A stretch of DNA of 64,000 bases from Blasia pusilla (GCA_050084515.1 CM114271.1:3410001-3474000); one strand, 5' to 3'. Shown: positions 5,561 to 55,720, counted from the stretch's first letter. Program-made: numbers and translations. The notes: generated by a model from the letters alone, not told the origin.

Positions 5561-6110
5561 GCACTTGCTAGTTAAATTTATATAATTGTAAATCTATAGA
5601 ATTAAAAGGAACGGGGTTAGACAATTGTCCTTTTAAGGGTTCCCTTTTCACTAGTGGACTTAAGAGCCCTGATTTCCTAGGCTCAAAAATTTTGGATTCA
5701 AATGTGGGACAACCACTATGGAAATCACACATCCCTTCCAAGCTCGCTCCAAGCACAACACGCTTGCCAACGTTATATGAAATCGAATCACGAAATCTAT
5801 ATTATTATTATTGGAAAATGCCACTTTCATTCAACAAAATTATTTGACTCTTTCATCCAGGAAAATTATTTGCCTTCTCATTCAATAAAATTACTCTAAA
5901 TGAATTTTAAATTACACTTATAAATTAATTATGTTTGATAATTCAAACCCCAAACACTAGTTCTCGTAGAAAGCACACACGAGTGATTTGAAACGCGACG
6001 GAAGGAACGAAAGTGCCATGAAAAGGCAAGCGTTTCCGTCCACGCTTTCCGTTCACGGTGTGCGTCCAACCAATTCCTCCTTCCTTCCTCAACGCAGCCC
6101 GAGCCAACCG

Positions 6111-6372
6111 TCGGAAACCGGGAACCGGTGAGCGGGAAGCGTTGCCTGAACACGAGTACGCGTGCCTGGAACCGGGAAGCGTTGCCTGAACACGACTGCG
6201 CGTGCCTGAAACCGGAAACCGGTAACCGTTGCCTGAACACGAGTACGTGCGCCTGAAACCGGAAAGCGGTAAGCGGGAAGGGTTGCCTGAACACGAGTAC
6301 GCGTGCCTGAAACCGGAAAGCGGTAAGCGGGAAGCGTTGCCCGAACACGAGTACGCGTGCCTGAAACCGGGA
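6111..6372. repeat. CpG-rich minisatellite, 5 copies of core GTTGCCTGAACACGAGTACGCGTGCCTGAAACCGG, unit about 41-54 bp
   Basis: Directly visible tandem copies; lies about 110 bp upstream of the uS15 ATG. Confidence 0.95.
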
Positions 6373-6482
6373 GGACGTGCTGATTTCACGGCGAGGGGAA
6401 CGATGCATCGCGTCTGGGGTTTTGAGGGTGGGGGAGTTTCGTTGAGAGGGAATCGGCTGAAAGAGTTGGGCAGTGAGTGGAG

Positions 6483-18401: not shown

Positions 18402-21400
18402 ATGGCTACTTCTTCGTCAGTTTGTGCTCGCCCTCCTCCGCTGGTTGAAGGGCAGTTAGATGGGTCTAACTATACATTGTGGAAGTTCAAACTTAGAACT
18501 GTCCTCGAATCATTTGAGATCTGGGAGACGGCCATAGGGGTCTATTCGAATCCACAAGCTACTTTGATTTCTGCATGTTCATCTTCATATGGTGATATCA
18601 ATCTTGTTGTATTACTGGCATAGAAACGCAAAAATATTGATGCTCTATATGCGATGGTCACGAATGTAACTGATCTGTCATGACTCTTATTCAACATACA
18701 ACCACTGTTGCTGAGGCGTGGAACATTCTGAAGAATCAGTATGAAACGAGGAATGAGACTCAGATTCAGAATCTTGAGAATCAGCGTGCGTCCGAGAAAT
18801 TTTCAAAAGGAGAAAGCATGGAGCAATTTTTGATAAGAATCAAGAATCTTCAAGATCAGATGGCGTGTGTAGGAATTTCAAAGTCTAACAAAGATTTGGC
18901 ATGTCAGTGCATAAGGATTTTGCCTCCAAGATATGACTGTTTGGTCACTGCATTGAATACTCAAGTAAGACCCACGCCGCTTACTTTTGAACAATTTAGT
19001 GCAATGTTGGTAGAAGAGGGAATGCGCTTCAAAGCAAGAGAGGGAAGTGATGCAGCATTTACTCCCAACGTAGAGTGAGGTAGAAATTAGGATTACAGTT
19101 CAAATGTCAAGAAGAAATTTCCAAGGAAAGCCTTCAAATGCTTTTATTGTGGTAAGCTAGGTCATCTTATCAAAGATTGTAGAAAGAGGAGTCAGGATGA
19201 GAAGAACTGATATTTAAGACCTAAGAAGGAGTCTGGAAATTCTGTAGAACTAGGAGAACATGAAGTAGATGCTTGGGTAGTAATCGAAGAGTTTTGCACA
19301 CAGGTAGAATATTTCACTAAGTCAAAGAGTGAAGATGTATGGGTGCTCGATAGTGGAGCATCTAGGCATATGACCAATCATAAGGATTGGTGTAGCTCCT
19401 TACATCCTCTACAGGAGCCCATCGTTGTTACTGTTGGGAATAATGCAAAGTGCATTGTAGAAGGGAAAGGCACAATTTCTTTGGTCTCACAAAAAGGAGA
19501 TGAAAAGAATTTAACTGATGTACTGTACGTACCAGAGTTGAAGCACAATTTGATTTCAGTAGCAATATTATGTGATCGTCACCTAGAAGTTCGTTTTAAG
19601 AAAATTGAAGCAGTCATTGAGGATGCCAATGGGAAAGTAGTGGGTGAAGATATACAATGTGGAAATATCTACGAGTTGTATGCTTTCACGATAAGTGTAG
19701 GTACAGATCTTAGTAGCAGTAAGTTGTGGCATGAAAGATTTGATCATCTAAGCTTTCCCTTACTAAGTTAGATGCAGAAGTTAGGCATGGTTGTTGATTT
19801 ACCAACAATTTTTTGAGTGTTAGATACATGTGAAGCTGGTGTGATGGGCAAGCAACACCGACAACGATTTCCACAAGAGTCCAGCAATAGAGCAAAGGCT
19901 CCTCTAGAGCTGATTCTTGCTGACCTCTGTGGTAAAATAAGAGCAGTGGCATTATGTGGTTCTTTCTACTTCTTTTTAGTTGTCGACGATTATAATAGGA
20001 AGATTTGGGTGTATTTCCTTTGTGATAAGGCAAGTGCTTTTGGAAAATTTAAAGTATGGCACAAGTTGGTTGAGAATGAGACAAGAAAGGAGATATAGAA
20101 GCTTCACACCAATCGTGGAGGAGAATTCTTATCAATAGAATTCAAAAAATATTTGGGGGAGCATGGAATCAAGCGACGGTTAACCACGACACATATACCA
20201 CAACAAAATGGAGTTGTTGAGCCTCAAAACCGTACAGTGGTGGAGATGGCAAGATGTATGATGAAAGCAAAAGGTTTAACAGAAGGATTTTGGGCTGCAG
20301 TTGTTTATACTACCGTTTACATTCTAAATAGAAGTGCTACCAAGTCAGTACAAGGCATGACTCCTCATCAATCATACTCAAGTAAGATACTATGAGTCCA
20401 ACATTTCAGGACTTTTGGTAGTGAGTGCTTTTGTACATATTCCTGAAGCATCTAGGACCAAGCTGGAGTCCAAGAGTAGGAAGTGCATCTTTATGGGATA
20501 TTGTGATGAGTCTAAATCTTATCATCTATGGTGTCCTAGGGTAAAGAAGATGCTTGTGGGTCGTGATGTGGTGTTCCAGGAACAACCTAGTCAAGTAGCG
20601 GATATCAGTGGTCCGTCCACATTATCATCAAACGAAGAGATAACCCACTAGAGCACACCACCAAAGTTAACACCAAATCATCAAGAAGAAGAATTTGGTG
20701 ATGATTACAAAGAGCAGTATGGTCTTCCACTACAATCATCATACCCTAAGTGGATAAAGAAGCTCTTGGATAGTAAGGATCCACCATCAACTGATGAAGT
20801 TGTTACACATCCAAGGAGATCCAAGAGACTAGAGGGGCAAAATAGAGCTTCCGCACATCTCGTCAACATGGCCTTGATGATAGAGGTCTTGAAGGTGGAA
20901 GAGCCATCATGCTTGAATGAGGCCCTTGCTCATTCTCAACGGAGAGAAGCCATGCAGTTGGAGATAGACGCTATTCAAAGAAATGAAATCTGGACTTTGG
21001 TTGAGAAGCCAAAGGACAGGAAGATAATACGCACCAAGTGGGTGTATAAGACCAAGTACAAGTCGGACGGTACATTGGATAAATTCAAAGCAAGATTGGT
21101 TACACAAGGATGCCTAAAAATCAAAGGTTTTGACTACTATGATACTTTTGCTCCTACTATAAGGATGACAACCATTCGAATTATTCTAGCAATTGCAGGA
21201 ACAAGACATTGGCCTCTATACCAATACGATGTGAAGTTTGACTTTCTGAACATGAGTCTCAAGGAGGAGGTGTATGTATCTCAACCACCAAGTTTTGAGA
21301 CACCCGGATCATAAGATAAAGTGTGTTTATTTCATCGAGCATTGTATGGGTTGAAGCAAGCCCCAAGGGTATGGTATCAACGAATAGATACATTCTTCCG

Positions 21401-32844: not shown

Positions 32845-34139
32845 ATCATGAGTAGATCTCTTCTTCATAATTTCCATATCACGTTGAAAATATTTAACAA
32901 ATGGTACAACATCATATGAGACATAAATTGGATATGACACATCATTAAGTAACTTGAAATAAAGGAATAAATTATCTGCATGACATGGACAATAAAAAAA
33001 ATTCTTTGGTAAGTAATTTTCATTTTTTTTCTATGGAAATGATTAGGCTAGTAATTTATATCTTTATGTATTATAATGTGGAATTTAGCTTAAGTAGTCA
33101 TTCATGACGAGTGCTACATCATGGATTAATATATGGAACGTTATGAACTATCAATAATTAAATAACAATTAGCAATCCTTGAGAAATGAAAACTCATTTC
33201 AAAGTTATGATTGATTTCTTCTTATAATCCAAATCAAAGAAAATACTTAGCTACTCATATTAACAAGATGATAAGGCTCTTCATAGGAATGAATTTAGGA
33301 CTTACCAAAAGAAGTGAAGCCTTCTAAAAGAAGAAAATGCCACTTATTGGATTTTCAGCAAATGTAATGTGGGTTTCACAAATCTATTCCAATGTATTGT
33401 ATGGGCGGGCAATGTATTCCTTGTTTAGGAAAACTAGTGCAAGATTGCTCAAAGCAACTGAGCAATCAACTGTTATGCGAATGCGAATCGACGACTCATC
33501 TACCTAAGGAGGGTATACTAACACCAAATGAGTGGTATATGCGGCGGTGGCAATTCGATACTATGGCAATTAAATATAGGAATAATAAGGGTGATTTATC
33601 CGTTTTCCAATCATATACATTCATTTATTTATTGACTAAAAATCAAATAAAATCCACATGTTGGCCTTTTACCCCCATGTTTTCCTGACCGTAAAAATAC
33701 TCCCGGGGAGAGGATCCGAGCCGCCCTATGGGATGGACTCCAAAAATTTTCCACGCTGCCCCATGCGGAGTAAAGAATTGTTTTGAAAATTTCCATTATA
33801 TATATGTTCAAATTAAAATATTGTACGGACAGTGACCGGGGGATGCAAGATGTGCACCGCCGTCGCCAAGACGCTGACCCTCAACCCGGTAACCTCAGGG
33901 GTAGGGGTTAACCATGTGTCGGTGGGTCCCTGCGCGAATGGGCGGGGCTGGGTAGCTAACTGGGAAGACGACATGTTGGCTAGCTAGCTAGCTAGACATG
34001 GGATCATCGGTGAGGCGCGGTCCTGATGGCGGGGCCGCGGGTCGTATGTGGAGCGATGTGTGGCGAGGAGCGGGAGGAACAGAGAAAGAAGCGGGGGCGG
34101 GGGCAAGGAAGGGAGGGCCGGAGGAAAGAAATACGAGTG

Positions 34140-34520
34140 GGAGCGCAGAGGGAGAGAAGAGAAGGGGAGGGGAGGGAGGGAAGGAGAGGAGAGGAGAGGA
34201 GAGGATAGATAGGACAGCATTGCGCTTCGGAATTGGTTAAATGGTGACAGGCAGATGAGATGCACAGTGCTGCTGTATGCTGATGGGAGAAGAGCTGGAA
34301 GAAATGCGCACCGCCCTCTGGTGATTGAGGAGACCTTTTGAGAGGTGGCGGAGCGCGGAGAGAGCGCGGAAAGAGCGCGAGGGAGACGCACGCGGATTGG
34401 TGAGGAGAACGAGGAGGAGGAGGAGGAGGAGGAGGGAGAGAGAGAGGCGGAGGGAGGGACGGAGAGAGGAAGGAAAGGGGCAGAGGAGGAGGAGGAGGAG
34501 AAGGAGGAAGAGGAAGAGCT
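34140..34520 (+). repeat. Polypurine (GAG)n/(GAGAG)n low-complexity tract upstream of UGE
   Basis: Directly visible. Confidence 0.85.
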
Positions 34521-34887
34521 GTGGTGGTGTAGTTGAGGTGGTTGCAGTCGTTTGTTGGGAAGCGTTTGGTTGTGAGTTGGGAGGACGGTGTGCGGGAATC
34601 GGTTGGCTGCGGAGCAGGTAAGGAGATGGATATCGGGCGCAGTTACGGAGGGCGAGATCTGAGAGAGTGGAAGATCTGAGTAGAAGGATTTCGATTTGAG
34701 CAAGCGAGTGTGGGGTGTATTGGTTTCTAGCGCGTCGTGTAGAGGCGATGCGTGGGAGGAGGTTTGCAGGATAGCGAAGCCGGACGATCAGCCTGGGCTC
34801 TTAGGCGTGCATACGAAATTAGTAAAGAGAAGGACGACAAGCGAAAGGAGGGAGGGAGGCAGGGAAGGACGGAGGGAGTTCACGAAT

Positions 34888-38738
<3,851 letters not shown>

Positions 38739-41700
38739 TTTTGAGGAGCTGGACATCTCCTTTCAGTGTACTCTAATTTCTTCTTTACCGTGGTTCTTGC
38801 TTGCTGCATGCAGCCAAGCAACAGGGGTAGTCATAAACCTTGGTCCTTCCACATTAGAAGTGAGACAGGCTGCAAAAGAACCACCATATAGCAAAGCTTA
38901 TGGGGCCATTGCCCATTCAGATGTGGTGGTGGGAGGTAGACACTATTTTCTTGTCTGAGTTGCTTCACCTGTGATCACAAACTCAGCAAAATTTTTCCCT
39001 GTTCCATGTAGATGCTGTGAGCACTTTGACACCCATTGTGTTTCTTAGAGCTCATTCAGTCAAATATTGAGCAATATTTAACCTGGGACAAGATGGTAGA
39101 TAGGAAAACGGGTAGGGAAAGAGGTAAGTTAGAGCAGATAGATCTACTGCACATGCGTTCTCTGACATGAGTTCCGCCAGGATTCATTGACTGTAAAGCA
39201 TATTCCCACTTGTTCCTATGGAGCCTAAGGCGGCAAATGCATGGAGCTTCACAGCAGAGTGTACGAAAATAGAAACTTGCTGAGATTGGGGCGCAGGTTA
39301 AATAACATTATCTATCCCATGAACTACTGCTTCCTATTCTTGGGACTCATGAGTTCTATGTGGGGAAACCGGATATAATACACTTGGACCACCTTGTAGC
39401 AGAGCATAGTGATGGTCAAGGGTTTCACAGCCTTCCTAACTTGTCATAACACTCTTTTTGAGAGTTTAATTGTTATCTTGGTCCCATGGCATGTACATCT
39501 GCAATGTGGGTAATATGCAGCCCACTAGTGGGTCTGACTCACCCAGACACATCCTGTAAGCAATTTCTTCTGGACCTCAATATGAGCAATGACTGGATGC
39601 CAATGGCCGCAAGCAGTCTACCTCATTGGATGGTTCTACTTTCAATGCATTATTTCTGCTTTTCAGGGACCAACAGCAGAGTTCATAATTTTTGTACTGG
39701 TTTTTGCTGCAAGGATAGAACAAACTCTTGCCAGTAGCTAAGAAGCGGTAACAGGCAAAATCTGGACGATAAAAAGGAATGTGATTGCAACAATGTGATA
39801 AATTGGGCGTTAGTAGGTTGGATATGAAGTGAACAATCATCTGAGTGATCCGAACAACTGCATATGGACTGGATATGGAGGAAGTGAGGATCGGGACCAC
39901 GGTTGAGCCTGATCATCTATCACCGGTTTTATCCTGACAGCTAATAGTAAGAAATATACCCTCCCTACCGTCTGTATATGGCAGTGGTTAGTCTCTTTGC
40001 CAGATTTATCTGACTGATGCATGTCTTTGGCAAAGAACGAACACTGGGACAACTAGTGTCAGACTCGTGTATTTGTATGAATGTAGGAATGATTCTTTCG
40101 TGCCGTATGTTAGGTCGGGGGATGGAAATGAATTTGATTATGGTGAGTATCTAATTAAGTAAACTCGAGTAGTTTTACTTGAATTGTCAAGGCATCTTCA
40201 CAACAATCCTGATAACATGTAGAGTCTTTCGTCTTCACTACTTTTGGTTTACTCACTCCATGCTCGTATTTCTTCCCACTAAATTTTGACCCTTACATCT
40301 GATGCGATACTCCAAAGAGTGAAACCAGGAGAGTATGTTTGCTCGGTAGGAACCATGGATTTGACAGGCTAGACCTTTCTATCGGAGAGGTGGTTCCTCT
40401 AATACTTCAGTCCTCGTGGATGCTCGTGTCAAGCAGCACGAATTCACGTTGAGTACCCATTGCACCCATTCGCTTAACATTTATTCGATGAGATTGTCTA
40501 ATTAGATGCGAGAGGTGTCATAATTAGATGTGATAGTTGTCAGAAAGGGATAACTAATTAGATAGTGGGAGCCTCGTTGTCTTCTGTGCGTCGCATAAAC
40601 CTACCGAGGCTTTGGAGAATACTTCGGATCTGCTCGAGCTTTTCTCGATCCTTCTTATAGTAGACGGCTCTCGACCCTTCTTTTAAGATGATGATTTCAT
40701 CAGCCATTGAAATGGAATACCTTTTAGTAAACTCTGGCAACTCCTTGCTTTAATGAATCCAACATCCATGGATCCACAAATTGTTATATATTGCCAAATA
40801 TTGGTGAGAGGGCTACTACGCATTGTACTAAAGATCATGAACATACCTTCTCATAAAATTTTGGTCATATGGTTAGATGCCCAAGATTCAGAAATGAGTT
40901 GTACATCTTTTGAGATATTTAGCCTTTTCGGAGTAGGTTTGGTTCCAATTTTATTTAATGTACGTTTAGAGGTATTATGTATGATGGGTGATTCCCACGG
41001 AGGTTAAGTTTTGTACTTGCAGTTAATAAGGAAGGTAGGGTGGTATGGGTGGGTGCTCATCCTTTCATTTCAATATTTAACATCACACCAAGAATCTTTA
41101 TCATAACAACACAGAGAAATCACTCCTAAAGGGCCTCCTGCTTATAGATGAATTATTTTTTGTTGAAGATGAAATTAGATTTGAAGGTATTCTTGTCTCT
41201 TCGCCCCCCATCGGATAATAGCTCTTTGAAACCCCCCTTTCGCCTCTTCAACATGCCTGAAAAGGTGCCCCTGCTTCTTCTGTGTTCGGTATCCGCAAGC
41301 GGAATTCACACACTGATTCTTACGTTAGCATGAGAAGATTCCTATGCTCCATGGGTTTAGATGCAAATTCCGACATAACTGCTTAGCTTGTACCCTCTCG
41401 CGGCGGCCGATTTGATAGCACACAGGCAAGGTGAATCTCCCGCATCAGCATCAAATCACTCTCAGATCTGCCTTTCTCATGGAAGTCCCCCCATCACCTG
41501 AAGTGGCTTGAAAGCATTCCCTTACGTCTGCCATGGGCTTCATGTAAGTCCTATCTTCGGTGCGTAATTGTTCAAGTGCAGATCCATTGAAATCCGAGTC
41601 ATGGGCTTGGAGGGACGCGAATTCATTGTCCTCTTATCCATGAATCAAATCTAGTTTCTTTTCTGCTTGGGAGGAGTGCAAGTGGATCTGCAGCGTATGC

Positions 41701-42268
41701 ACACCAAACCGAGCCCCGAGGTCTACACGTCAGTGTGGGGAGGTTAACTTAACTAGCTGTAGTTTGTCTTTTGGTGAGATATCTATTGCGTTTGGTATGT
41801 GCGCTAGAAGTCGAAATTGAAGAATGACGTGGTGATTCAACTTGCATGGTTTCTGTCGGGTGTTGTTAGTGAGGTTTTGGACTTTTTTCAAATTCAGTTC
41901 GCATTATTTTGATCGGATATTGGTTTTTGGAACGTGTACTGTTGTGATTTCGAAAGTTTTGATCATGTAAGACTTTTTTTTTTTCCTTGGGGATTTTGTG
42001 GTCGTCTTTTATTCGTACTTTCTTTTCTCTCGTGGCAAAGGAACATGTAAAACCACTTCCACTACTTTCATGATTCGAAAATTATGGATCACACATGTTG
42101 CAAATTTTTTGGAGAAAATGTTTTAGAGAGGGCCTTTAGGTTTACAACATATTTTCTGAGAGACGGTCAATTTCTGAAGTGGAGTATGAAATGATTACTT
42201 TTCTTTGCTGTTTAGGTTTGTGCTCGTAGTGGAAGTGGTCGTAACATAGCTATATCTCTTCCACCTCG

Positions 42269-42500
42269 TTGGAGTATACGAGGTGCTCTGATGCCAATGA
42301 GATTCTTAATAAGGCTTTAGCTAACTCCACCATTTCCAAGGATTTGGGACTCAGGAGTTTTGCCAGCCCCGCAGAGTTCTGCTTCCTCGACAATTTACCC
42401 AGCGCCCTAAATTCCTGACGAATGGCTTTAGCGTCAGACAGGGGGTTTCCATTCATGATTCGATTCATAGCTATGAGTATGAACACCTCGTATACTCCAA
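42269..42500. mobile_element. 232-bp segment bounded by 20-bp inverted repeats (MITE-like)
   Basis: TTGGAGTATACGAGGTGCTC (42269-42288) vs GAACACCTCGTATACTCCAA (42481-42500), 19 of 20 complementary; no clear TSD. Confidence 0.5.
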
Positions 42501-44527
42501 GACTCGAAGATAGGCTATAAAAGACCCAAGCCCTCTCTCAAATTTCGAGTGGTATTGGAAGAACTAGGAAAAGTAGCACATCATGAAAAGCTCCACTTTG
42601 AGAATATAAAATGATTGAATGAGGCTCTCTCTCTATCTATAACTCGGAGCAAACCCAAATCACATTTGACTCGCCCAAGATGGTAAATTTGCTCCTCCCA
42701 AGGCCCAAATGGTTCTCTTCATACACTTCACTTTGATGATGAGATGGCGTGTGAAAAATGAAAACCTTGCACACTTTGATGATGAGATGCCATTTGAAAA
42801 CTCGGAATAATATAATGATCACGGAGGCGAAAAGAAAAAAAACGCTTCACTCCATGAGGGGCTCTTAAATGAACCTAAGGAAGGAGTCGGAAGAACTGGA
42901 AACCCCAATAATGAAACATATATTGAAAACCTGACGTATTTGAAAGCGTTATCCCCAAACTCTAATGAAAGAGGGCGAATGTGTGGGCATTGTGTGCCAT
43001 CATTAGACCAAACGCTTATGGATTCCCTCAACTTTGGAGGAGGGGGGAAAATATGTGTCTTCATGCGACCAATGCATTACTTATGGATTCCCTTAACTCT
43101 AGAGCAAAAGGGGAGATATGTGCGTCATCATAAGACCAATCACTTTTGGATTGGCACACGCATGCACAACGTGGATCTCTTGGGTGTGAAGTCCACGAGC
43201 AAAGAAGTGGATTAAAAATTGAATACAAATTCCGTTTCCACATAGAGATTGGTTCCATTTTCTTGGTTCGTTTGTTGGGTGACACAAAGTTAGGATTAAA
43301 TTTGCAACTGATTTTTTTTTATTCAATGGCTTTTGGAATATCAATTTGGTAGCCCATTCCAGTTAGGACTTTAGATTAACTTTTTTAGGCTCAAATAAAA
43401 AAGTTTATCGAATCGTTGAATAGGAAATTCACTTGTCGCACTCGAACACGAATTCTCCATGAGTTTTTACATTGTCCGCCCAAAGACCAAGTTTGAAGTC
43501 CCTCCTCTTCAACACTTGAGACTTGAAACTTATTATGGGGTGAAGATTTGGGTTTGGCTTCCTAGCCCCATGGAAGCTCGCAAAGAGATTTAAACTGCCA
43601 CCTTCACCTTCAAAGGATCATTCTACTCAATTCAATCCAAGAAAAGCCAATAGGCCTATAGGACCCCTTCCACACTTGTCTTCATGACACGCACGTATAG
43701 GCACCTCCTCATCCTAGTTTTCCAACATTCAGTTTTGGTCCTCCAAGACGAAGATTTTTCCTATGGAAGCTTTGATATTTTTTCCAACTTCGACTTCGAA
43801 TTCTTAAGAAGTCATGTTTGAAAAGCAGGTAAGTAAGCGTTCTCCATTTCTATCAATAGGGTAAGGACGTTTCCCCACTTATGTAGAATATCTATATAAC
43901 TATATATAATTAAAAGAGGATGGGGTTTGAAGAAACCCTCCTCATTTGTGGAGATTTGTGTTAAATTTTTTTTTACGATGTTGACACATGTCATTTTAAG
44001 AAAAAAATTCAATTAAGAGGAAACAATTAAATGGAAAAAGAAGAATGATTTTCTTAAAATCTAAATATTAACCTCTAATTAAAATTAAAGGAAATACGCC
44101 ATGGAGCTTACCATCTCTCACCGTGAGGAGAGGGAGGGAAGGGCCATCAAACTCGATTCCCCAAGAGAACTCTCGATCACACATGAGAAGCACATCATGA
44201 ATGAACGGATGAATTAATGAGTGCTATGGTAGACGTATCCATCTCCATCGAAAGGCCCATGGAACCCACTCCCAAAAGACGAAATGTCACCAAAGCTTTC
44301 GTCCATGATTGACTAGAGACCGAAGAATTTATATATCTACCCTCTCTATCGATATATATATATATATCTCTCTCGCTCCTCAAGCCCCTCCCTCCACCAT
44401 TCCAGCGCTCGTTCCTTCCTTGTGCGGATGGCATAATTGTCCTTGAAAGGGACCCCAAACCATCCGCTCATGCATGAGACTCCGGTCTTCAATACCCGCG
44501 AAGTCTTTGTGAGCGCGAGTGATTTTG

Positions 44528-45135
44528 GGACGGACGGACGGAGGGCTAAAAGTGTACTGCCCGGACGAAAAAAGTAAGGACGTGGACGGCCGCCACAATC
44601 CGTCCCGTCTGATGTACTCGCCCTCGAAATCCTGTACGTCCCATGCAACAACGACAGCCTCCACATCAACGACGACGGCCACGTCGAAGTCAGAATCCGT
44701 CCTCTCCCTCCATCATGGATGGAATCCGATGGATGGACGGACGGACGGACGGATGGATGGAGGGAGGAAGACGAGTACGGAACTCACGAAAGTAACGTGG
44801 GTTTTTTTCGCTCTCCGTGGGTGTGTCTGGCTGTGGGCTGTGGATGGGAATCATGCGACGTATTCCGTAGGCGTGAGAGGGGTTTGACGTTACATGGATG
44901 ATGATGATGGATGGAGTGAGTACGTGTTGGCTCCTGCTTCTTCATGCAAAGGTTCATTCATTCATCTCGGTCGTCTGTGGTGATCATCGTGGACGGAAGG
45001 ACGGATGGAGTGATGGATGGATGTTTTGTCTACTCTCTACACTCAGTTGCTCAACAGCTCCCATCACAGTCTGCAATAATGGGCCGCGGTGCGCTGGACG
45101 GACGGAGCCATGGATGGATGGATAATGGACGGACA
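44528..45135 (+). repeat. Dispersed (GGAC)n/(GGAT)n microsatellite patches in a CpG-rich island
   Basis: For example GGATGGACGGACGGACGGACGGATGGATGG at 44731-44760. Confidence 0.8.
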
Positions 45136-48100
45136 CAGGGACAGTACTTTCTATGGTAATCATCAGATGGAGAGAGTCGGAGGAAAGGGAGACCGTAACT
45201 TCAACTCTCAGTGTCACTAAGGGCTACTACTGTAGCGAGCGGGTAGTGACTGCTAACTGAAGCATCTCCGAATTGGTGGAGTGGGACAATTTGGAGGGTT
45301 TCTAAAAAGGTGGGAGTTTTAGGAAAAACACGTGGTGGAAAACTCGGAGACTTTCCACGAATGAGGATGAGGGAACTTTGAAGGCTTCCACATAAGCGGG
45401 AGACTAGTTTAGCCCTTCCTTACTAGAGTCAAATAAAAAAATCAAAAGGACGTTGTGGTTTAGATCTTCGAAGCTTGAAAGTTAAATAAACAAGTGTCAA
45501 GTCCGTGTAATGCATAGGTGACGGAAGGATATCTAAGCATAGGTTAAATCCTTGAACTTGTTAATTTAATTATTTTTTTAAAGTATGACACATGAGGGTT
45601 GAAAGTATAGGTGTCAACACCGGAAGATGGTTTTTTAAATTGGTTTAAAGTTTTTTTTTAATCTACTTTGAATGATCCTATGGGTTTAGAAAAAAAACGA
45701 TCTTATTAGTTGAAAGTGCTAAGTGTCAAGAGGAGACGTGTTTGCAAAATGAAAGGACACTCTCCAATAAAAATATAGATAAAACATCTTTATTATTAAT
45801 TTTATGTAGCATTAACACTAGGTTGTCCACTCGTAAGGCGTACTTGGCTGGATTTGCATGAAATCTCAATCGATTTGAAAAAAATCCATAACTAATCATT
45901 AGGGCCTAGTTTAGACCCGTCTTTTGTGGTATGTGTAGAACAAGCCACCTCATCATAATTTTAATTATTTTCTATTTTAAACACCTAAGTTTAGGCTTCA
46001 TTATTATTTTATTTTATCTTGGTGGGGTATCTTAGGCATTACATCCCATTCCTAGGTTCATATAAAGTGTGAGGGTTTTTATTTACATTATTGTGTAAAT
46101 AAGTTCATATGAAGCATTATGTTATGAAAATGTTCATTTTAATCTTTGCATTCTCCATTCTGATTTCCTCAATTCTAACTAATTTCGACTTTCATACAAC
46201 GGGTAAGATTATGAACCCGTTCATTTTTGTATAAGTAAATACAACAAAATTTTCTTGTATATCTCTACTAATCTACAACATTCATATTTTACTCATCATT
46301 TTTTTTGGGGCCAAGACTTTGGTTTGTTCTTTTAAAAGGCTTCTCTTATTTTAGGAAATGTGAAGTTCCATTCCATAGAGCCTTAGGACCTCAATAGCAT
46401 AGATGTTAAGAATTAGGAATTTCCAAGTCCACTCAGGGCTCATAGTGGGCATGATAAAATTCAAGGTAGTATGTTGATTGTATGCCTCAGTTTCTTTGCC
46501 CTACACATAGTCAACTATTTCTTTATCAATAATAATATGACTCACAGACAAGTTGGATTGGATTTACCTCCTAAACTCAAGAGTCTTTATCATAGCCCTC
46601 CACCCCTTATCAAGGATGTACATTTTGGAGTCCAATTTTTTGAGGCACATCCAAAAATCTCCAAACCTTTTGTTTAGCACGATTTTGTGGGGGTTAACAT
46701 TCACTTCCCATTGGCTTGGACAAGGCTACTAATCCACTTAGTATAGTGCATTGGAGATGCCCTAAGGTCATGGTCCAATGTGCTTAGTCCCCAAAATGGT
46801 CTCCAATTTGTGCTTTGATAAATGAGTGCTCAAATTTTCATTTCTGTTATTTTTTCATCTTGAATGTTGCTTAATCAATGATAGACTAGTAAGAATATTT
46901 GTATACACATGGGATTGGGTGGTAAGAGAAAAATCGAAGATTTGGAAAATAGTGATACAACCGATATGAAAGGCTTGTAAGAAAATTTCTCGAGAGTTGG
47001 GTGATAGAGAAGCGTAAATAGAAGAGAACAAGTTGATAGTGAGATTATAAGCTTTGACATCACAACTTGTACAAATATATAAGACCACTACTTTTCAGAA
47101 ATACGAGTTATTTTGCTACCAACAACTAGACATTATGTTATATAGACTGTAATTGAATGAAGGGTATATCTTTTTTTAAAAAGGTGAGACTTAACTCCTA
47201 TGTAGCACCTTACTTATTTTGTCATTCATCCCAATATATGATTATGATTGGCCTAAAAAATCCGTCGCTTAGAGATTGCCCAAGGTTGTATGGAATCGGA
47301 CATGTCCATCCATGAGATGAATATGCCCCACAGGTCTCATGCTTGGGTTTTTTTACCTAAGTCGTCCGCACGAACTCAAGATGTAGAATCGGATGTGGGC
47401 TTGGATTGAGGGAGGCGGGCATGGATCGAACGGGTATGCGGGTTGTGAGACCTAGCCTAGCTCGCATCAAGCCCCTAGAGCCAGAGGCCTCTACGCGTAA
47501 GACAATGTTACATATGGACAAAATTTTTGTCTGTGGAGTTACGTCTGTCCTATAGACGAACTTGGTTCTTCCTATAAAGGACTATTCATCCAATGTTGTC
47601 AAGTATTTGTAGCAATAATTCTAAGCCATGGTATAAGGTTGTGTTAAATTTTCTTCTTTTTTTAAAAAAATTGTTGGATTTTTTTGGTTGTTGTAGATTT
47701 TCCTACTTCTATTCTCCAAGAGGGATTTTTGAGGCATGCCTCCTCATAATGGAAGTACTAGGATTTGTTGAAAATTTGCAGAAGTTTCCAATTTGAGATC
47801 ATGAGAAGACATGCACAACATGCAATCAATGAATTGACAAATGAAAAGATACAACATAATGTTGTGCTCCACATATAATCCATAAACCGTGATCAAAATT
47901 ACAATTACTGCGTGTCAAACTCAACTTATTTTTTATGTCACCTCAATAATAGCCTTTCATGTGAAGAGCCATATTAGAATATTTCTAGTTTAATCCACAC
48001 ATTTTAAGAAAGCATGATTTTCATAATATTATAAACATCTCATCCTATATAATTTCACTTGAAAATAACTTGAAAGTACATTAAGGTAATATCTCATGAT

Positions 48101-49306
48101 ACGGATAAAGTAAACATGTCTCAAAATGTAATTAATATCTCGGAAAACAATTCCAATGGATGAAAATAAGGTATATACATGTATGGTGTATCAAATTTTT
48201 TTCGCTGAAAAGGGTACTGAATTTTCAAATCATAAATATTATTATTTTAGTAACATTGCATAAGGAGAAATTCTCATGGAAAACATACTCAAGTTTTAAA
48301 TCATATGAATATGACTCATTGTATTGTTACAATTCAAATCCCACATGCCCATGAGAGAAGAACATTGAAAGGAAATTCTAACCAATGTCTTATCCCTAAT
48401 GTCTTACAAGCATAACAAATCAATGGATAGACCTACTTACAACCCTTCCATATGGATTCACGTAACCCTTGCAATAACCAAACAAGGCACCAAATTAGTG
48501 GGTATGGCAAAAATTGTCATCTATACTATTATCGGAGCATGCCCCTTCATTTTGCAAACTCTTCTCCTCTTGATACTCGGCAATTTTATCAAATAGGATC
48601 GCTCGCCTTCTAAGCCAACATGATTACTTGAAATTGATTTAAAATGAATTGAGAGTCAATTATGGGAGATAACTACAACCCTTACAAGTTCTCCCTGTTT
48701 TTTTTTTCTCTTCATCTAGCCTATCCACATATCTTATACACACCTTTGATAATTACTTTTTTCCAACCCCTCGGGGCCTCTGGAGACCCATGTACGGGCT
48801 TACACTAGTTGTCAAAAATAGAAGAGAAGGAAATCCTCTTACTAATTATCTCATATAATTTACTAAAATATATTTTATTAAATCTCGAGTATGTGTTTTT
48901 CATGATTTCCCTCTAAGTAGAGAAGTGGGCAGCCTTAATAGGTTTGCATGGTAACCAAGTAAACATATTTAAAAAATACATGAATATATTAGATATATCT
49001 ATATATATAAAAGATGGTACAAATTTTTTTATTGGTGTTTATTTCAAGTTTTATTCTTAACCTGGTCTCCCAGTTTTTTCGTATAAGAATATTTTTTCCT
49101 TAAATCGTATTAAATTTGAACCGGATATAAACCTTAGAAAATCCCAAAGAGGAAAGAGAGCAGAAGGAGCCGACCCCGCTTTTGACCGAAATAGGCGCTT
49201 TCTTTTCTTACTGAGGTCTCGGTTTTTGGGCACGATAGAAAAAGCTGACAGTTTTAGGATGGAGTTTTCCCGAGCTTTTGGTGCGGGGACAAGAAAACTG
49301 CCACCA

Positions 49307-49647
49307 CAAGTTGGGGAACAAGTGTGGTTGAGTGTTAAGAATCTCACTCTTCCGAAGGAATTTTCCGCAAAATTGTCAGCCAAGTATGTTGGACCGTATG
49401 TGATCAAGGCAAAGCCGTTTGAGGATGTGTACACGTTGGAGCTGCCAAACGAGTTCAAGATTCACCCGACTTTCCATGTGTCATTATTGAAGAAGTATCT
49501 TCATGACAATGTGCGTCCGGAGCGAATGAGGATGTTGAGACCACAACCGGTCATCAGAAATGAGGAACCAGAGTTCGAGGTTGAGACCATTCTGCGTTCC
49601 AGACGTAGAGCCACCAAGTACGAGTACTTGGTCAAGTGGAAAGGCTA
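49307..49647 (+). mobile_element. Ty3/gypsy chromovirus fragment: integrase C-terminus (GPY/F) plus truncated chromodomain
   Basis: QVGEQVWLSVKNL...KLSAKYVGPYVI...IHPTFHVSLLKKY...EFEVETILRSR...EYLVKWKGY, cut by an LTR insertion. Confidence 0.93.
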
Positions 49648-50226
49648 TGTCGTGCGAATCCACATCTTCATACAACATACATCGCTGACATACCATACGC
49701 ACATACATACATAACATAGAGAGTATCCACAAACGCAAGTGTACCACAACTGAAATCCGTGAAAGACCTACTGTCATAAAACACGTTTACAATCACATAC
49801 AATCGAGCCAAACCCACTCCACGATGGGAGAATCTAGGTCGAAGCTTATGGAAACACCATAGCCAAGAGCTCTACTCACTACCAAGGCTAACTCCCAACG
49901 CACAGGCTCAACTCAAAGAATGATCGTTCTTTGAGGGCAAGCCATCTTATATCCTCCAACCTAAGAGCGGGCCCTCTTTGGGAAAGTCACCCTAACCGAG
50001 TAACCCCAACCCTATGGATGGAACCGCATCTCTACCAAGCCACTACGGTCCTACATAAGGAATGGCCTCTATCAAAGACACCATACTCTACGACATAATC
50101 CGTATGGTCATGACAAATTTGTCGTGCGAATCCACATCGTCATACAACATACATCGCTGACATACCATACGCACATACATACATAACATAGACGAGAGTA
50201 TCCACAAACGCAAGTGTACCACAACT
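49648..50226 (-). mobile_element. LTR-A (49648-50115, 468 bp, TGTCGTG...CATGACA) joined via AATT to a truncated second copy (50120-50226)
   Basis: Near-identical repeat of about 105 bp at 49648 and 50120; short terminal inverted repeat; TATAA and GT-rich tract on the minus strand give the orientation. Confidence 0.8.
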
Positions 50227-50797
50227 CGCCCCCCTAACTGGCGCCCCCACACACACACACCACACTCTAGAAACCTCTCGAAGAATAGACCATGATCAAG
50301 TTACTCTCCCAAGAGGGGTGATCCACTCTCATTGGAAGAGCAAGCAATCCCAAAGCCATACACTCAAGAGAGACACGAGAGACTCAAGATGTGGAATAGA
50401 AGGTGATGAACCCTTGAAGGTCCCTCCTCTTTATATACTCACAAGGGATCCACAAGAGTACGAAATAGAGCTTATCTTATCTTGTGCCACATGGCTTCCT
50501 CTCAAGGCTTAGCCAATCACATTTTGACACAAGTAGATTTCCTCTTATCTCTTCCAAAATATCCTCTTTTACCCACATGATATTTTCCAAATTACCCCAA
50601 CTAACCTAGCCACCAACCAAGACTACTTTTGCTTTTCATTAAAGCAACTACTTTACTTTTATAAAGTCATCTTTTATTTATTACCTCCTTTTCCTAAAGT
50701 TGGGCCCGCATAAAAGAGGCACCATAAAGAGGTTTAAACATAAGAATCTCCTTTTTCTAAGCCAATTTACTTAATACTAATGAAACTCTATCTAACA
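50227..50797 (-). mobile_element. Truncated LTR-B (minus strand starts TGTTAGATAG)
   Basis: Ends ...CTATCTAACA at 50797; minus-strand TATATAAAG near 50430; sharp compositional switch to coding-like sequence at 50798. Confidence 0.6.
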
Positions 50798-53782
50798 CTT
50801 AATGACGAAGGAGTTTACACACTGGTTGATTTTACTATACGACAGCGGAGGGAGAAAGTGTCTTTGTCTGAGCGTGCAAAGTTCATCCAAGATGCAATAT
50901 CTGCAGCAACGAAGTACACGGCAAGCAAGATGCAACACTACATCGCCATTCTCAACCCCGAACTTGGCCACGATTTCTACAAGGAGCTGAAGGCGATAAT
51001 CAAGCGCCAGCAGAAGAGGGATGAAGATCCGCAAGGTCGGATTGGGGAGAAAGTGTCTCTCAATCGCGTGCATCAATTTTCCTTGTCTGGAGTTAGCAAA
51101 TTTAGGAGAATCCGACTGATGAAAATCAGTCTCGAGGGCAACACACCATCCTCCGGGTGTCTCTGATCCAGTGATCTCCCACTGGCTCCGTGAATGGTCA
51201 TTCTGGGATGCGTTGTGGCTTCTTGGAAAGTCCATGCTCGTGGGTCTCCAAGCGGAGCTGAAAAGAATAAAGCCAGTTCCGGTGGAAGTAAACCTGGAGA
51301 ATGTTGAAGATTTTGAACTTTGGCTGGATGACATGCGGGACAAGCCCATTAAAAACCCAGGTTTCAGGACGATGTTCAAGGATCACATCCTCCCTCATGC
51401 AGACCTTGACGAAGAAATAGAAGCGAAAAAAGGGATTTCGCAAAGAAGAAGCGAGATCTTCAGGAGCAGGCGGCCGATGCATCTCGACTAAGAGCTGCCC
51501 CCAACGCATGGTGTTCCGGTACCTCGTCTATTGTAAGAATGCAGGTAACTGGCAAAAAATACCGGCAGCTTGCAAATTGTGGGCTTCTCTGCATGATGGA
51601 GAGACATTTTCCATGTACGACATGGAGATGGCTCAAAGCATGTCCGATTGGGAGGTGGAGAATTTCCCGATTTGGCTGGACTTCAACGACCGTGAGGACG
51701 TAACCAAGAAAGATCTACGCCTGCTCTATGATGGAGTGACCGCAGGTAGGGACGACATCCCCAATTTTGTGCATCCTAAAGACTTTTTCGAAGGAGATGT
51801 AGAGGAGCAAGCCCTCAAGACAGCGGAGTTGGTGTCCAAGGTCGTCACCGCCAAGGACAAATCTACAACAGATCTCAAAACCAAGGCGAGGGGATTGAAG
51901 AATTCCAAGGCCGAGTCTTCCCTAAGAGAGGCTGAAAATTCAAGGCGAGAGCCGGAATTGTCCGGGCGAGCGGGGAGAGAGGGTGGGACCAGGTCCTCCG
52001 CAAAAAAAGCTCCACTAGAGTCTGAGGTCATAGAGACCCCAACAAGCCGACCGCAGACTCGGGAGAAGCGGAAGCGAGAGGCGCCAGGGTTGTCCCTGGG
52101 AGCAAACTAGGATGTGGAATACATTCCATCATCCTTGGGAAGACATAGAGAAACAACGACCCGGACAAGCGTCATCATTCAGTGCAGTAATCTTCTGGAT
52201 GAGCTGAAAAGTTTCAATTCCCAAGCGTCGACACCCGCCATCGAGAAATTGACAACGCTGGGACGGAAGCTTCAACGAAACGGGCACACTCCCTGGACGG
52301 TCCATGGGGAGGTCGAAGAGGTGGCGGTGGATCTCCTCGTCGCTGATTTGCCCTCAGGGTTGCGCTTGTGGGACGAGAATCCATCCGACGGGATCCCATA
52401 CTGGAATGCCCCTCTTTCTTATGACCAGATCGCGCTCCTGTTTTCCTTTGTAGACGCTTATCTCAGTGACAGGGGCTATTTCTTAGTTTTGACTGGAAGG
52501 AGCGAGGATGAGCTCTTCAACCTCCAATGCGTTAAGAGGTCGCTAAAGTGGAGGACGGCACAATCGTGGGTCATCAAGAACGAGTACCCACTCCGATCCG
52601 CGACGAGTCAAATTCGGGTAAGGGCTCTAAATTTGTATTCAAATTCTCTTTCTCCGACGGGTTGCATCTCTGCATGCAACCTGTCGGATTGTTTGAAGCT
52701 AGAGACGGCGGTGGTGCAATCCATCTGAAAGCGACGAATGCAAATTTACCGCAAGTCTCCATTGGGTGAATGCAACCCGTCGGAACCCGACGGGTTGCAA
52801 GTGCTCATGCTTTTTCCTTGTGTTTCTGGAATGATGCAACCCGTCGGAACCCGACGGGTTGCAAGTGCTCATGCTTTTTCCTTGTGTTTCTGGAATGATG
52901 CAACCCGTCGGAAAGCGACAGGTTGCTCTTAGCCAACCATGGGCTGCTCTAAGCCAGCAACCTGTCGCCTTCCAACGGGTTGCTCATGGAAAAAAAAATC
53001 ACTAACACTTGTAAAACAACCCGTCGGACTCCGACACGTTGCTCCAATGTTAGGATTATAAAGAAGTTCACTGGGGTTCAGCGAAGTTCTCTGGGAACGT
53101 GTTGCACATTATGTCACCATTCTGAGAGTAGACCAGTGGCCAAGTAACTCTTTCTTGTTGCTGACATTGTTTCCAGCGTGCTTCTTTACAGATGTACTAC
53201 TCCTATGTTTACTGCTTTGTTCAGCCCAAGCACAACTTCCAGGTGTTTAAGATCCTGGATCCTATGGATCCATGCTCCGATGGATACAGCTTAGATAGTT
53301 TATACAATTCCCCCCCGAGAATTTACATGCAAGACGGTACCCCCTTACTTGGAGGAAGAGAAAAGTCGCCAGCCCTGATGCAAACGCTGATCGAGCTCTG
53401 CTCAAGGCCGAGTGACTTGGTGTTCGACTTAGTGGGCCTTTCAGGAGCGAGTATCAGAGGCGCGTGGCAGAGTGGCAGGAATATTCTTTTCCTTGAGGGA
53501 AGGCAACAACTGTTTGACCTTTGCAAAGGCAGATTACGACAGGCTAGTTGGGGCGTACAACTCTCCTCCGAAGCCAAGAGCTCCGGTTCCAGACCCACCA
53601 TTGGTAGGGACACAATCGTCACTTCCCACGATTCTGAAAATCGGGAGGGCAAGGCTGACAGTAATCTTGGAAGAGCTCTGGGACGATGATGAGTGAGTTC
53701 AAAGAACTCAAGGACCCAGCTTGACTACATCGTTTGGAGTAGGGATTTATTTGATGACGAGGCAAAAGATTTCATAGAATAG
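50798..53782 (+). pseudogene. Disrupted gene: long unknown N-terminal region plus beta-class N6-adenine/N4-cytosine DNA methyltransferase-like domain, with one intron (52618-53191)
   Basis: VDLLVADLPSG (motif IV position, 52327-52359); FVDAYLSDRGYFLVL; SWVIKN; then after a phase-0 GT-AG intron YSYVYCFVQ and EKSPALMQTLIELCSRPSDLVFDLVGLSGASIRGAWQSGRNILFLE...FDLCKGRL (motifs X-I-II). Frameshifts near 51160 and 51430-51500; in-frame TAG at 52108; 5' end cut by an LTR. Confidence 0.82.
52653..53042. repeat. Palindrome-bearing tandem repeat in the MTase intron (64-bp period; core TGCAACCCGTCGG-AAC-CCGACGGGTTGCA)
   Basis: Cores at 52771, 52835 and 52899; diverged cores at 52653-52687, 52957 and 53017. 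Confidence 0.95.
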
Positions 53783-54865
53783 ATCAAATGTACAGTTCCG
53801 AGCTTCTTTCAAATGTAATAAAGAAAAATATTTTTTCGAACGATGATGGTGTTTGTAAAAGTTTGTTGAATATCTTTTTTGGTCTTGTCAAATGTGATAG
53901 TATATGTACTCCGAGGACTTCTATTTTGCAACCCGCCGGATTTCCCCGGCTTGCAACTTTTCACTTTTTGATCACCATACCTTTTTAACCACTTCGAGGC
54001 AACCTATCGGATTTCGATAAGTTGGCTGCATGAGTGATCGGACTCTTTTGGACTCTTTACAGCCATTCTGGCAGGCTTCTTCACTTTGGTACCTTCTTCT
54101 AGTATCGTCAAACAAGGCGTAGGCTTCATCTCTTCTCTAAGACATGTTGGATTCCTACTACATGTGGGATTGCCATCATGGTATTTCCAAGGACGGAACA
54201 CATATTGATACTGGATGGGTGTCACATTGCAGAGCGGACAAGATATACTGCCAAAGAAGGCGGTGGAACTCAAATTAGGTTACATGGGACCGTTATGGTG
54301 TACCTAGGGGAGGGCCAAGGCTCTCGAATTCGCCAACATTTTCGATCCCCGTCTACAATCGGCCAGAGGAGCCACTTATATCCTAGGACATTCCTTTTGT
54401 ACAGGAACCTAGGAGAGTTAGGAGTAAATTTGTAGATGACGAGGCTGAAGAAATCATAGACTAGATCAAATGTACATTTCCGAGATTCCTTCGGATGAAA
54501 TAAAGGACGAGATTTTTTCAACCGATAATGGTGTTTGTAAAAGTTTGTTCAATATTTCTTTTGGACTTGTGGATTGTGTTCGTCTAGCTATTCAGAATTA
54601 CAATTTTGCACCCCATCGGATTCCGATGTATTGCAATTTTTCATTTTTTGAACATTTCAACTTTTCAACCATTTCCAAGCAAGCTGTCAGATTTCGACAG
54701 GTTGGCTGCTTGAGTGATCGGACTCTTTCCCTGGGAGACCAAATTCTGAGGCATTGTGACGGGCTTCTTCACTTTTGGCTCATTCCCCTAGTATCGTCAA
54801 ACCAGTCTTAGGCTTCTTTCCTTCTCTAAGACGTGCTGGATTCCTATAACCTGTCGGATTGCCAT
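53753..54865 (+). repeat. Diverged direct duplication of about 425 bp (53753-54176 and 54435-54865) covering the last codons and 3' flank of the MTase-like gene
   Basis: Colinear shared blocks GATGACGAGGC, TAGATCAAATGTACA, ATGGTGTTTGTAAAAGTTTGTT, TGAGTGATCGGACTCTTT, CTAGTATCGTCAAAC, GGATTGCCAT. Confidence 0.92.
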
Positions 54866-55720
54866 TTCGGATTCCCAAACAGTTGAATTTTCGTGGGTGC
54901 AGGGTGGAATGGAATTACTTCTCAAAATCTTTCCTTTGTTATGGTGAGCTTGCTTGCAAGGGGTGCAAGCCATCTGATTTGGACGGGTTGCAAGAGTTGG
55001 AACCTGTAAAATTCCGACGGGTTGGGAGGGGTGCAGCTTCTCGGTTTATCAGATTTAGGATCTGAATGAAGGGACATCAATTTCTCTTTACTCCAGACAG
55101 CTAACAATTTTTTGGTTTAATTATCGTCTCCTATGTTCACATTTCACAAAGTTGGTCTTTATTTGAACCTTTCATTGAGATGAGATTGCTACTTCTGGTC
55201 ACATTATTTGCCCATGGTCCTAAAAAAAAAATAGCCCTCGGCACAACTTACTGTAGACTGAGACAGGCAATGTGAAGAAACTTAGGCTCACATGGAGAGT
55301 GATGGAAAAATGTTTGTAGTGGTCTTATGATGTCTACTTATTTTTCGCCCCCTGAGAAAAGGAGGTTTCTTAAGGCCCGAATGTGGACCACTACCTATTC
55401 TCTTCTAAAGATTTCATGAATTTGAAAGCAAACCAAAATTTCAAATATGTCAAAAAGTTTTGAAGAGAGGAGGCAGATTTGGCCCCTTTTTTTTTAAAGA
55501 GACCCTCCTCTCTTCCTCTCTTCCTCTCCTCTCTTCCTCTCTCCTACCAGAATATCAACCCCCCTCTATAGTGCCTACAGCACCCGAAAACCTACGCGGT
55601 CCTCTACCCCTGTCGTCCATCTCGCACGCCCAACTGGTAAGACCACTCAATGTGTACGGTGGATCACTTACACACTCCTCTATATGCTCCCCCTCATCTG
55701 AAGATTACATAGAAGGAGAT

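Follow-up and report, generated by a model that had tools for sequence, protein, structure and literature searches.

A decayed copy of an amplified liverwort gene family with a putative methyltransferase-derived domain in Blasia pusilla

The DNA analysed here is a stretch of 64,000 nucleotides from the liverwort Blasia pusilla (GCA_050084515.1, CM114271.1:3410001-3474000), further referred to as the window, and the subject of the study is a damaged gene on its + strand at 50844-53689. The reading that we favour, with modest confidence, is that this gene is a dead copy of an amplified liverwort gene family, borne by a mobile element, with a C-terminal domain that is derived from a methyltransferase and is probably non-catalytic. 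The copy in the window is dead and does nothing. The family is highly amplified and appears to be new to description; judged from its sequence, it would be of methyltransferase descent with degenerate motifs. An intact gene would encode about 650 residues, comprising a mostly helical N-terminal region (about 330 amino acids), a low-complexity linker and the C-terminal domain. The latter would derive from enzymes of the beta class (permuted, N6_N4_Mtase-type), with one phase-0 intron between the catalytic-side half and the half binding S-adenosylmethionine (AdoMet, also SAM). The family would be carried or amplified by a mobile element acting at the DNA level. The domain would no longer be a classical N6-adenine/N4-cytosine methyltransferase, and its most likely role for the element would be that of a pseudo-enzyme module which binds DNA and/or AdoMet, by analogy with the role of METTL14 for METTL3.

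Prokaryote-type amino-methyltransferase domains are rare in eukaryotes, and N4CMT, DN4MT1 and the Dam-carrying retrotransposons have each changed the views of DNA marks or of repeat adaptation. The family considered here is invisible to Pfam, is annotated as "hypothetical protein" in two Riccia species and is strongly amplified in the genome to which the window belongs. It provides a test case for the use that a repeat may make of a methyltransferase fold without the classical chemistry, and possibly a clue to the entry of beta-class methyltransferases into liverworts. Of most interest would be a relationship to the liverwort enzyme that writes N4-methylcytosine (4mC).

Relatives and gene structure

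The read-through of 51421-52617, with the in-frame TAG taken as X, was used as the query of a phmmer search over 1.84 billion representative proteins. Only three proteins were found at E≤0.001: P0004 (E 9.7e-17), P0005 (7.8e-10) and P0006 (2.3e-4). All three are hypothetical proteins of liverworts, two from Riccia sorocarpa and one from Riccia fluitans; each is the sole member of its 90% cluster, and the annotation, on contigs of chromosome scale, treats them as ordinary genes. No further family members were obtained with exon 2 against longer proteins, with the exon-1 region at near lengths or with the exon-1 family profile; the exon 2 protein search covered longer proteins only, and a separately annotated exon-2 peptide may exist in Riccia. 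Pfam gave no family for the N-terminal part or the exon-1 domain in any of the four sequences, and pattern scans of metagenome contigs and of viral contigs (IMG/VR) gave no relative. No description of the family was found in the literature, paper supplements being outside the scope. As far as the databases show, the family appears to be restricted to liverworts.

Stop-to-stop open reading frames (ORFs) on the + strand occupy three frames: 50744-51166, 51123-51491, 51421-52110, 52111-52728 and 53165-53689. The third and the fourth of them share one frame, with only the TAG at 52108-52110 between them. The exon 1 portion of ORF 52111-52728 ends at 52617, and the exon 2 portion of ORF 53165-53689 begins at 53192. 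The sequence confirms that the ORFs lie where the initial annotation had placed them and that a phase-0 GT..AG intron can connect them. The features of the window copy are as follows.

50844-51142, + strand: coding segment 1, 5'-truncated, read as in ORF 50744-51166; the start is lost together with the rest of the first 28 or so codons
51144-51263, + strand: coding segment 2, after the first frameshift, in ORF 51123-51491; matches P0004 residues 106-145 in frame 3 (tblastn, E 4.6e-4)
51457-52107, + strand: coding segment 3, after the second frameshift; matches P0004 residues 188-325 in frame 1 (tblastn, E 6.3e-6)
52108-52110, + strand: in-frame TAG stop, read from the sequence
52111-52617, + strand: end of exon 1, putative motif IV-V (catalytic-side, N-terminal) half of the methyltransferase-like domain, from Riccia matches and the family-profile alignment
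52330-52359, + strand: motif IV equivalent, D-L-L-V-A-D-L-P-S-G
52618-53191, + strand: putative phase-0 spliceosomal intron GTAAG...TTTACAG, read from the sequence
53192-53689, + strand: exon 2, C-terminal, AdoMet-binding half (motifs X, I-III) with a tail of about 45 residues, from library matches and hhalign
53414-53452, + strand: motif I equivalent, D-L-V-F-D-L-V-G-L-S-G-A-S
53687-53689, + strand: TGA stop at the end of exon 2

Coding segment 3 contains the N-terminal region of unknown function and the low-complexity linker. In coding segment 1, residues 40-133 of the ORF match residues 29-124 of P0005 (E 2e-9), and P0004 is matched over its residues 30-95 (E 0.001; both by BLASTP). The matches to the relatives run in order along the window across all three frames: P0005 29-124 corresponds to 50861-51142, and then P0004 106-145 to 51144-51263, 188-325 to 51457-51852 and 357-485 to 52240-52620. 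Hence what lies upstream belongs to the same gene, as its N-terminal part, and, given that its pieces lie in three frames, the frameshifts are real. Since homology begins only at about 50861, which is residue 29 of P0005, the 5' end is truncated. The initial annotation had described a decayed copy, and the TAG at 52108-52110, at least two frameshifts and the 5' truncation bear this out. It had also placed roughly 480 codons of unknown sequence ahead of the domain; there are in fact about 420, and the Riccia proteins have homologous sequence in their N-terminal region. The antisense ORFs 50792-51382 and 53323-53724 have no Pfam family and were regarded as chance frames.

Copy number, expression and the left boundary

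Three RNA runs and one whole-genome sequencing run (X15) with the same species label were mapped on 34600-53750 at ≥90% likeness. DNA depth in five bins over 50575-53750 was 396, 265, 252, 351 and 399. In the nine bins of the control gene at 34600-40350 it was 0-1.23, with a mean of about 0.6. The family numbers several hundred copies, roughly 400-650 by the depth ratio, with a large Poisson error on the control. With a depth of 252-399 over 51214-53750, and about 0.6 in the single-copy gene nearby, the gene is far from single-copy, in line with the initial annotation, which had expected members elsewhere in the genome; an intact member, as expected there, was not seen. The 19-kb stretch as a whole received 20,808 reads, of which 14,009 were 90-95% alike to it, nearly all depth being in the repeats at 49.3-53.75 kb; the window copy thus appears to stand 5-10% from its relatives. 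Two letters at 51498 are omitted in 175 of 282 DNA reads, so most copies differ there in frame from the window copy. Self-comparison found no second copy of the gene in the window.

RNA depth was 0-1.15 over 51214-53130, which includes exon 1, in the three runs. Over 53131-53750 it was 3.3-5.4 in the sense of the gene, and these reads bear variants of other copies. These values come from 6-12% of each RNA run, in samples of unspecified tissue, and mean low expression in these samples, not silence.

At 50844, between 116 and 232 reads of the left-hand repeat continue into unlike sequence (three RNA runs), which marks this position as the junction truncating the gene. The left-hand repeat (49751-50844) is more abundant than the gene family, with a DNA depth of 700-1040; its transcripts, at an RNA depth of 50-112, run against the sense of the control gene. 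Inside the repeat, which ends at 50844, sharp boundaries lie at 50078, 50243, 50299 and 50335. A direct repeat of 104-107 bp with 96% identity is found at 49648-49751 and 50120-50226.

The putative intron

The GTAAG at 52618 follows a complete codon and TTTACAG closes at 53191, which gives a length of 574 nt and phase 0. The window copy has a second in-frame AG at 53175-53176; the genomic reads of the family have A at 53176 in 181 of 184 cases, and TTTACAG is therefore taken as the family acceptor. The Riccia models P0004 and P0006 end 3-4 residues beyond the exon-1 boundary, the first extra residue being V (GTN), as would be expected of models reading into a conserved intron; P0005 continues for about 20 residues. 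The intron bin (depth 351 in run X15) is on par with the exon bins, meaning that the copies carry the intron. The family therefore multiplies together with it, which points to a DNA-level element or to unspliced copying rather than to processed retrocopies. In many copies 52863-53017 is swapped for 24-25 other letters, and so the intron varies between copies.

Near-perfect palindromes are clustered within the putative intron at 52654-53027, with a 13-bp stem TGCAACCCGTCGG and a 3-nt loop. The cluster includes a 64-bp unit repeated 2.5 times at 52770-52926. The 12-mer GCAACCCGTCGG has nine of its 11 matches in the window inside the intron, against 0.09 expected. The predicted RNA fold of 52640-53040 has -180.5 kcal/mol (z -11.5). 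Genomic reads at the cluster show strand-switch joints and a frequent replacement of 153 nt. The cluster may be an insert of a foldback element or of a miniature inverted-repeat transposable element (MITE), or a source of hairpin RNA; Rfam gave no family in the window.

The methyltransferase-derived domain

Exon 2 has an NCBIfam match to a DNA methyltransferase subfamily, all seven of its PADLOC matches are methyltransferases of type II/III (best E 2.4e-5), all five PHROGs matches are methyltransferases (best E 1.7e-4), and the four PDB matches at E≤10 are all methyltransferases of the beta class (a DpnA-like enzyme and M.RsrI). The PHROGs and PADLOC matches are located at the C-terminal ends of the profiles. 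In a tblastn search of 50,697 phage records the best match had E 2e-3, and 18 of the 20 rows listed were annotated as methylase or methyltransferase. ESM features gave 0.95, with all 30 matches listed falling in PF01555 clusters. Five complete phage enzymes, each with DPPY and a PF01555 match at E 1e-26 to 1e-42, were picked from the exon-2 matches as a reference set. Residues 51-120 of exon 2 align by hhalign to columns 253-322 of these enzymes (96.2%, E 2.4e-9, 70 columns, 33% identity), covering motifs X, I and II-III; this E-value is flattering, being that of one comparison with the best matches of exon 2 itself, and the E-values of tblastn and of the libraries are fairer. By these matches, exon 2 is clearly recognizable as the motif X/I-III half of a methyltransferase.

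For exon 1, the profile of the four family sequences was aligned with the same five enzymes, whose selection via exon 2 makes them independent of exon 1. The score was 27.2, and none of 200 column shuffles reached it (13.4 +/- 2.3, maximum 21.4); the reversed-alignment control scored 15.8. Residues 70-131 correspond to columns 26-88, with VDLLVADLPSG over IDLIATDPPYF and SDRGYFLVL over KPNGSLYLF. Two of the motif matches proposed at the outset, VDLLVADLPSG and LSDRGYFLVL, are thus supported by the profile register, and another two, SWVIKN and YSYVYCFVQ, could not be verified. ESM gave a lead to MT-A70/N6_N4 clusters at 0.86-0.89, below 0.9. We regard the likeness of exon 1 to the motif IV-V half, at the level of sequence profiles, as weaker than that of exon 2, but real. 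As the alignments of exons 1 and 2 follow each other in order, the two halves are colinear with the permuted arrangement of the beta class (IV-V, then X-I-II-III).

When the joined exons were used in hmmsearch and in single-sequence hhalign, only the exon-2 half was matched; the global alignment was unreliable, with motif IV off DPPY. Co-folding of the two exon peptides as separate chains gave a score of 0.60 against 0.12 for the best of three controls, with contact agreement of at least 63% and a partner pLDDT (predicted local distance difference test) of at least 61. This is weak support. In the calibration, 51 of 78 solved complexes and 2 of 108 mismatched pairs passed the mark; only 5 of these 78 complexes passed it with a score of 0.60 or less, as did all 4 passing mismatches (of 180). 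Moreover, SAM was included in the co-fold, unlike in the calibration, and the pass may stem from likeness to solved methyltransferases.

Motifs

The motif IV equivalent is D-L-P-S-G in the window copy and D-L-P-T-H, D-L-P-K-G and D-I-P-T-G in the Riccia proteins, so that all four sequences follow D-[LI]-P-[STK]-[GH]. They depart from the canonical (D/N/S)-P-P-(Y/F/W), as none of the four has the second proline or the aromatic residue; D and one P are invariant. At a pairwise identity of 27-29%, the positions invariant in the four sequences are D74, D79, P81, P96, W98, N99, D120, G122, W147, I155 and N157; beyond motif IV these make up the groups P-x-W-N, D-x-G, W and I-x-N. Invariance at such an identity indicates that the variant of motif IV is a conserved alternative and not random decay.

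In motif I, D-L-V-G-L-S-G-A-S compared with D-x-F-x-G-x-G-(T/S)-(T/S) keeps D, the second G and S/T, and has V for F and L for the first G. The reads show A>G at 53411 (725 of 748), which changes S to G and gives P-G-D as in M.RsrI, and T>C at 53198 (154 of 156), which changes Y to H at the third codon of exon 2. At these two sites the family majority is nearer to the methyltransferase consensus than the window copy; the other four listed differences in exon 2 are synonymous. A working writer of N6-methyladenine (6mA) or 4mC appears unlikely, considering the degenerate motif IV in all four sequences and the leucine in place of the first glycine of motif I in the window copy.

Comparison with known systems

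The PF01555 enzymes, such as M.RsrI (1eg2), the DpnA-like enzyme of H. pylori (5hek) and the adenine methylases of phage PY54 and a Morganella phage, have the same permuted motif order. The window family differs from them in scoring below the Pfam cut-off, in having D-L-P-S-G in place of DPPY and G-L-S-G in place of x-G-S-G, and in its N-terminal fusion of about 330 amino acids of unknown nature, its intron, its eukaryotic host and its hundreds of copies. METTL14 is a catalytically dead partner with a fold of the beta-class/MT-A70 type and a degenerate motif IV, which acts as a constrained nucleic-acid-binding scaffold. The window family has no sequence relationship to it beyond the fold class and no known active partner, and its host context is a repeat family.

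MpDN4MT1a and MpDN4MT1b of Marchantia polymorpha are active 4mC methyltransferases with TSPPY, encoded by two tandem host genes and specific to sperm (10.1101/2021.02.12.428880). They share with the window family the prokaryote-type amino-methyltransferase fold of the beta class and the liverwort lineage (10.1101/2021.02.12.428880). The window family differs, in a comparison by description only, in its degenerate motif IV and in being a high-copy repeat.

N4CMT of bdelloid rotifers, which has a chromodomain and passes PF01555, actively writes 4mC and is encoded by an allelic single-copy gene (PMC8885841). In both cases a PF01555-type domain is found in a eukaryote, intronised and fused; that of N4CMT was horizontally acquired and is joined to a eukaryotic module (PMC8885841). 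The PF01555 pass, the 4mC activity, the single-copy status and the chromodomain, again compared by description, are not seen in the window family.

The DAM-TEs are retrotransposons of the DIRS and long terminal repeat (LTR) types with Dam-like adenine methyltransferase domains, which keep Asn-Pro-Pro (NPP) and form part of intronless polyproteins (10.64898/2026.05.21.726589). Their heterologous expression gave no detectable 6mA, and DAM-LTRs are reported to be absent from Streptophyta (10.64898/2026.05.21.726589). The likeness to the window family is that a prokaryote-type amino-methyltransferase domain has multiplied within a eukaryotic repeat; the window family lacks NPP at motif IV, has an intron and no adjacent reverse transcriptase, and belongs to a different methyltransferase family. 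No Dam-family Pfam match was obtained at E≤10.

Interpretation and alternatives

Several observations weigh against the reading of a mobile, methyltransferase-derived family that we favour. As to the mobile element, no Pfam transposition domain (transposase, reverse transcriptase or recombinase) was found in the gene or in the tested ORFs of 53.7-64 kb, and no matching terminal repeats, whether terminal inverted repeats (TIR) or LTR, and no target-site duplication were found around 50844-55100. The 5' end of the element is cut by another repeat at 50844, and its 3' end was not found. As to the intron, no RNA read joining 52617 to 53192 is among the 15 of 68 joints listed; the intron is predicted from its sequence signals, and splicing was not observed in RNA. 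As to the domain, Pfam N6_N4_Mtase (PF01555) matches exon 2 with E 0.011 and 16.2 bits, short of the gathering cut-off of 26.7 bits. Exon 1 has no HMMER match in Pfam, NCBIfam, PHROGs, PADLOC or PDB: its 11 PDB matches at E 0.15-1 include no methyltransferase, the exon-1 family profile has no match to PDB sequences at E≤10, and the hhalign probability of this profile is only 13-16%. AlphaFold2 models are poor (pLDDT 38.7 for P0004 with a four-row alignment and 40.5 for exon 2 alone), and the Rossmann-like fold of the domain is accordingly a sequence-derived assignment. The exon-2 sequence is known from one decayed copy, so the defect of motif I may be private to it, and the presumed loss of activity is deduced from motifs only.

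The claims of the initial annotation fare differently on this evidence. The beta-class assignment with its motif order holds for the order and the homology of both halves (hhalign, PHROGs, PADLOC) and fails at the Pfam cut-off and at the canonical motif IV. The intron signals are present, and the proposed junction read is not among the joints listed. The proposed structural check yielded no usable match with models of pLDDT 38.7 and 40.5: Foldseek found nothing for the exon-2 model at E≤0.001, and the LOV and DENN domains at E>0.1 are meaningless for such a model. The idea of cargo of a mobile element is favoured by the high copy number and by the intron kept in the copies, and disfavoured by the missing transposase, reverse transcriptase, terminal repeats and target-site duplication.

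Copy number and intron retention are the only grounds for the mobile-element reading: a DNA-level element is inferred because the copies keep the intron and number in the hundreds, and the copies would then be dispersed. Amplification as a passenger, as a segment or as a satellite may have taken place instead. The likeliest of the alternatives, which we nevertheless hold to be unlikely, starts from an ordinary liverwort host gene: in this species, part of it, intron included, was captured and amplified by a DNA transposon unrelated to it (Pack-MULE, Helitron or transduplication of the CACTA type), or multiplied by segmental or satellite amplification, the protein having no role for an element. 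This would agree with the intron retained in the genomic copies at a depth of 351, with the annotation of the Riccia relatives as ordinary genes on chromosome-scale contigs in one-member clusters, and with the lack of a transposition gene beside the gene in the window. However, high depth extends over the whole gene of about 2.9 kb, truncation point and stop included, and not over a mere fragment; R. sorocarpa already has two paralogues with about 25-30% identity; and all three Riccia models end 3-20 residues past the boundary, which suggests weak and possibly repeat-derived models.

An active non-canonical amino-methyltransferase of DNA or RNA on a transposon, with intact copies elsewhere writing 6mA or 4mC, is quite improbable in our estimate. 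The AdoMet half keeps many of the family-invariant residues (in motifs I-III the V, D, second G, R and E, in motif X the K), at two sites the family majority lies nearer to the consensus than does the window copy, and the invariance of D and one P of motif IV and of the downstream P-x-W-N implies constraint. Furthermore, liverworts use a beta-class 4mC enzyme, MpDN4MT1 (10.1101/2021.02.12.428880). On the other hand, in all four sequences motif IV is without its second proline and its aromatic residue, the first glycine of motif I is leucine in the window copy, the Pfam score is below the threshold, and exon-1 RNA is near zero in the three runs, of which 6-12% was read from tissues unknown. The active non-5-methylcytosine (non-5mC) marking system that had been suggested for this family is not supported.

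A bolder proposal, which we consider a long shot, is that these are a second liverwort lineage of prokaryote-derived beta-class genes, intron-bearing, with an N-terminal module that is novel, and brought to hundreds of copies by a DNA transposon. It would be linked to the 4mC system of DN4MT1 as its vehicle or as a captured derivative, and the germline function of intact copies would be that of a non-canonical methyltransferase, or else of a decoy for or regulator of 4mC deposition on the DNA of the element.

Descent from an endogenised giant virus or other viral DNA is highly improbable. In sequence, exon 2 comes closest to enzymes of phages and bacteria, and PF01555 genes are reportedly common in large DNA viruses of algae, which counts for it; the intron of spliceosomal type, the hundreds of copies and the occurrence of relatives only in liverwort nuclear genomes count against it, as do the lack of a relative in the IMG/VR pattern scan and of a viral hallmark gene among the tested ORFs. 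That the methyltransferase likeness is due to chance or composition and the two ORFs are unrelated pieces of repeats was already disfavoured and is very unlikely as well: it would account for the Pfam score below the cut-off, for exon 1 without an HMMER match and for the poor models with the null Foldseek result, but not for independent libraries (PADLOC, PHROGs, PDB) giving only methyltransferases for exon 2, with 96% by hhalign, nor for exon 1 exceeding 200 of 200 shuffles, with the register correct and colinear, against enzymes whose choice did not involve exon 1.

Other features of the window

Two further relics of mobile elements are found in the window, so that the description of the setting as a transposon nest is fair. 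Fragments of a Ty1/copia pol gene lie at 19211-21314 (+ strand; Pol_BBD, gag_pre-integrase and RVT_2), and a Ty3/gypsy relic with an integrase SH3 domain and a chromodomain at 49061-49714 (+ strand). The latter is of low copy number and separate from the gene family. Its first part (bin 48658-49296) is at single-copy depth at ≥90% likeness, and the relic thus looks old and diverged; in its last 400 bases or so the bin is dominated by the adjoining high-copy repeat. Downstream of the gene, 53738-55100 consists of two diverged tandem units of about 682 bp with 77-82% identity and no Pfam match.

Long ORFs at 33984-34800 and 5929-6669 (both on the - strand) are of low complexity, rich in Ser/Pro, or internally repetitive, and the second has no Pfam family. 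They are probably artefacts of simple repeats, located beside the promoter of a host gene and inside another repeat.

This host gene, at 34600-39711 (+ strand), is the control of the depth comparison; it is single-copy and expressed, and its first exon encodes the N-terminus of an NAD-dependent epimerase/dehydratase. It has eight GT..AG introns supported by 29-69 RNA reads each, at an RNA depth of 20-80. Fixed differences between the reads and the window in this gene (e.g. 35023 A>G in all reads) show the source of the RNA to be another individual or strain.

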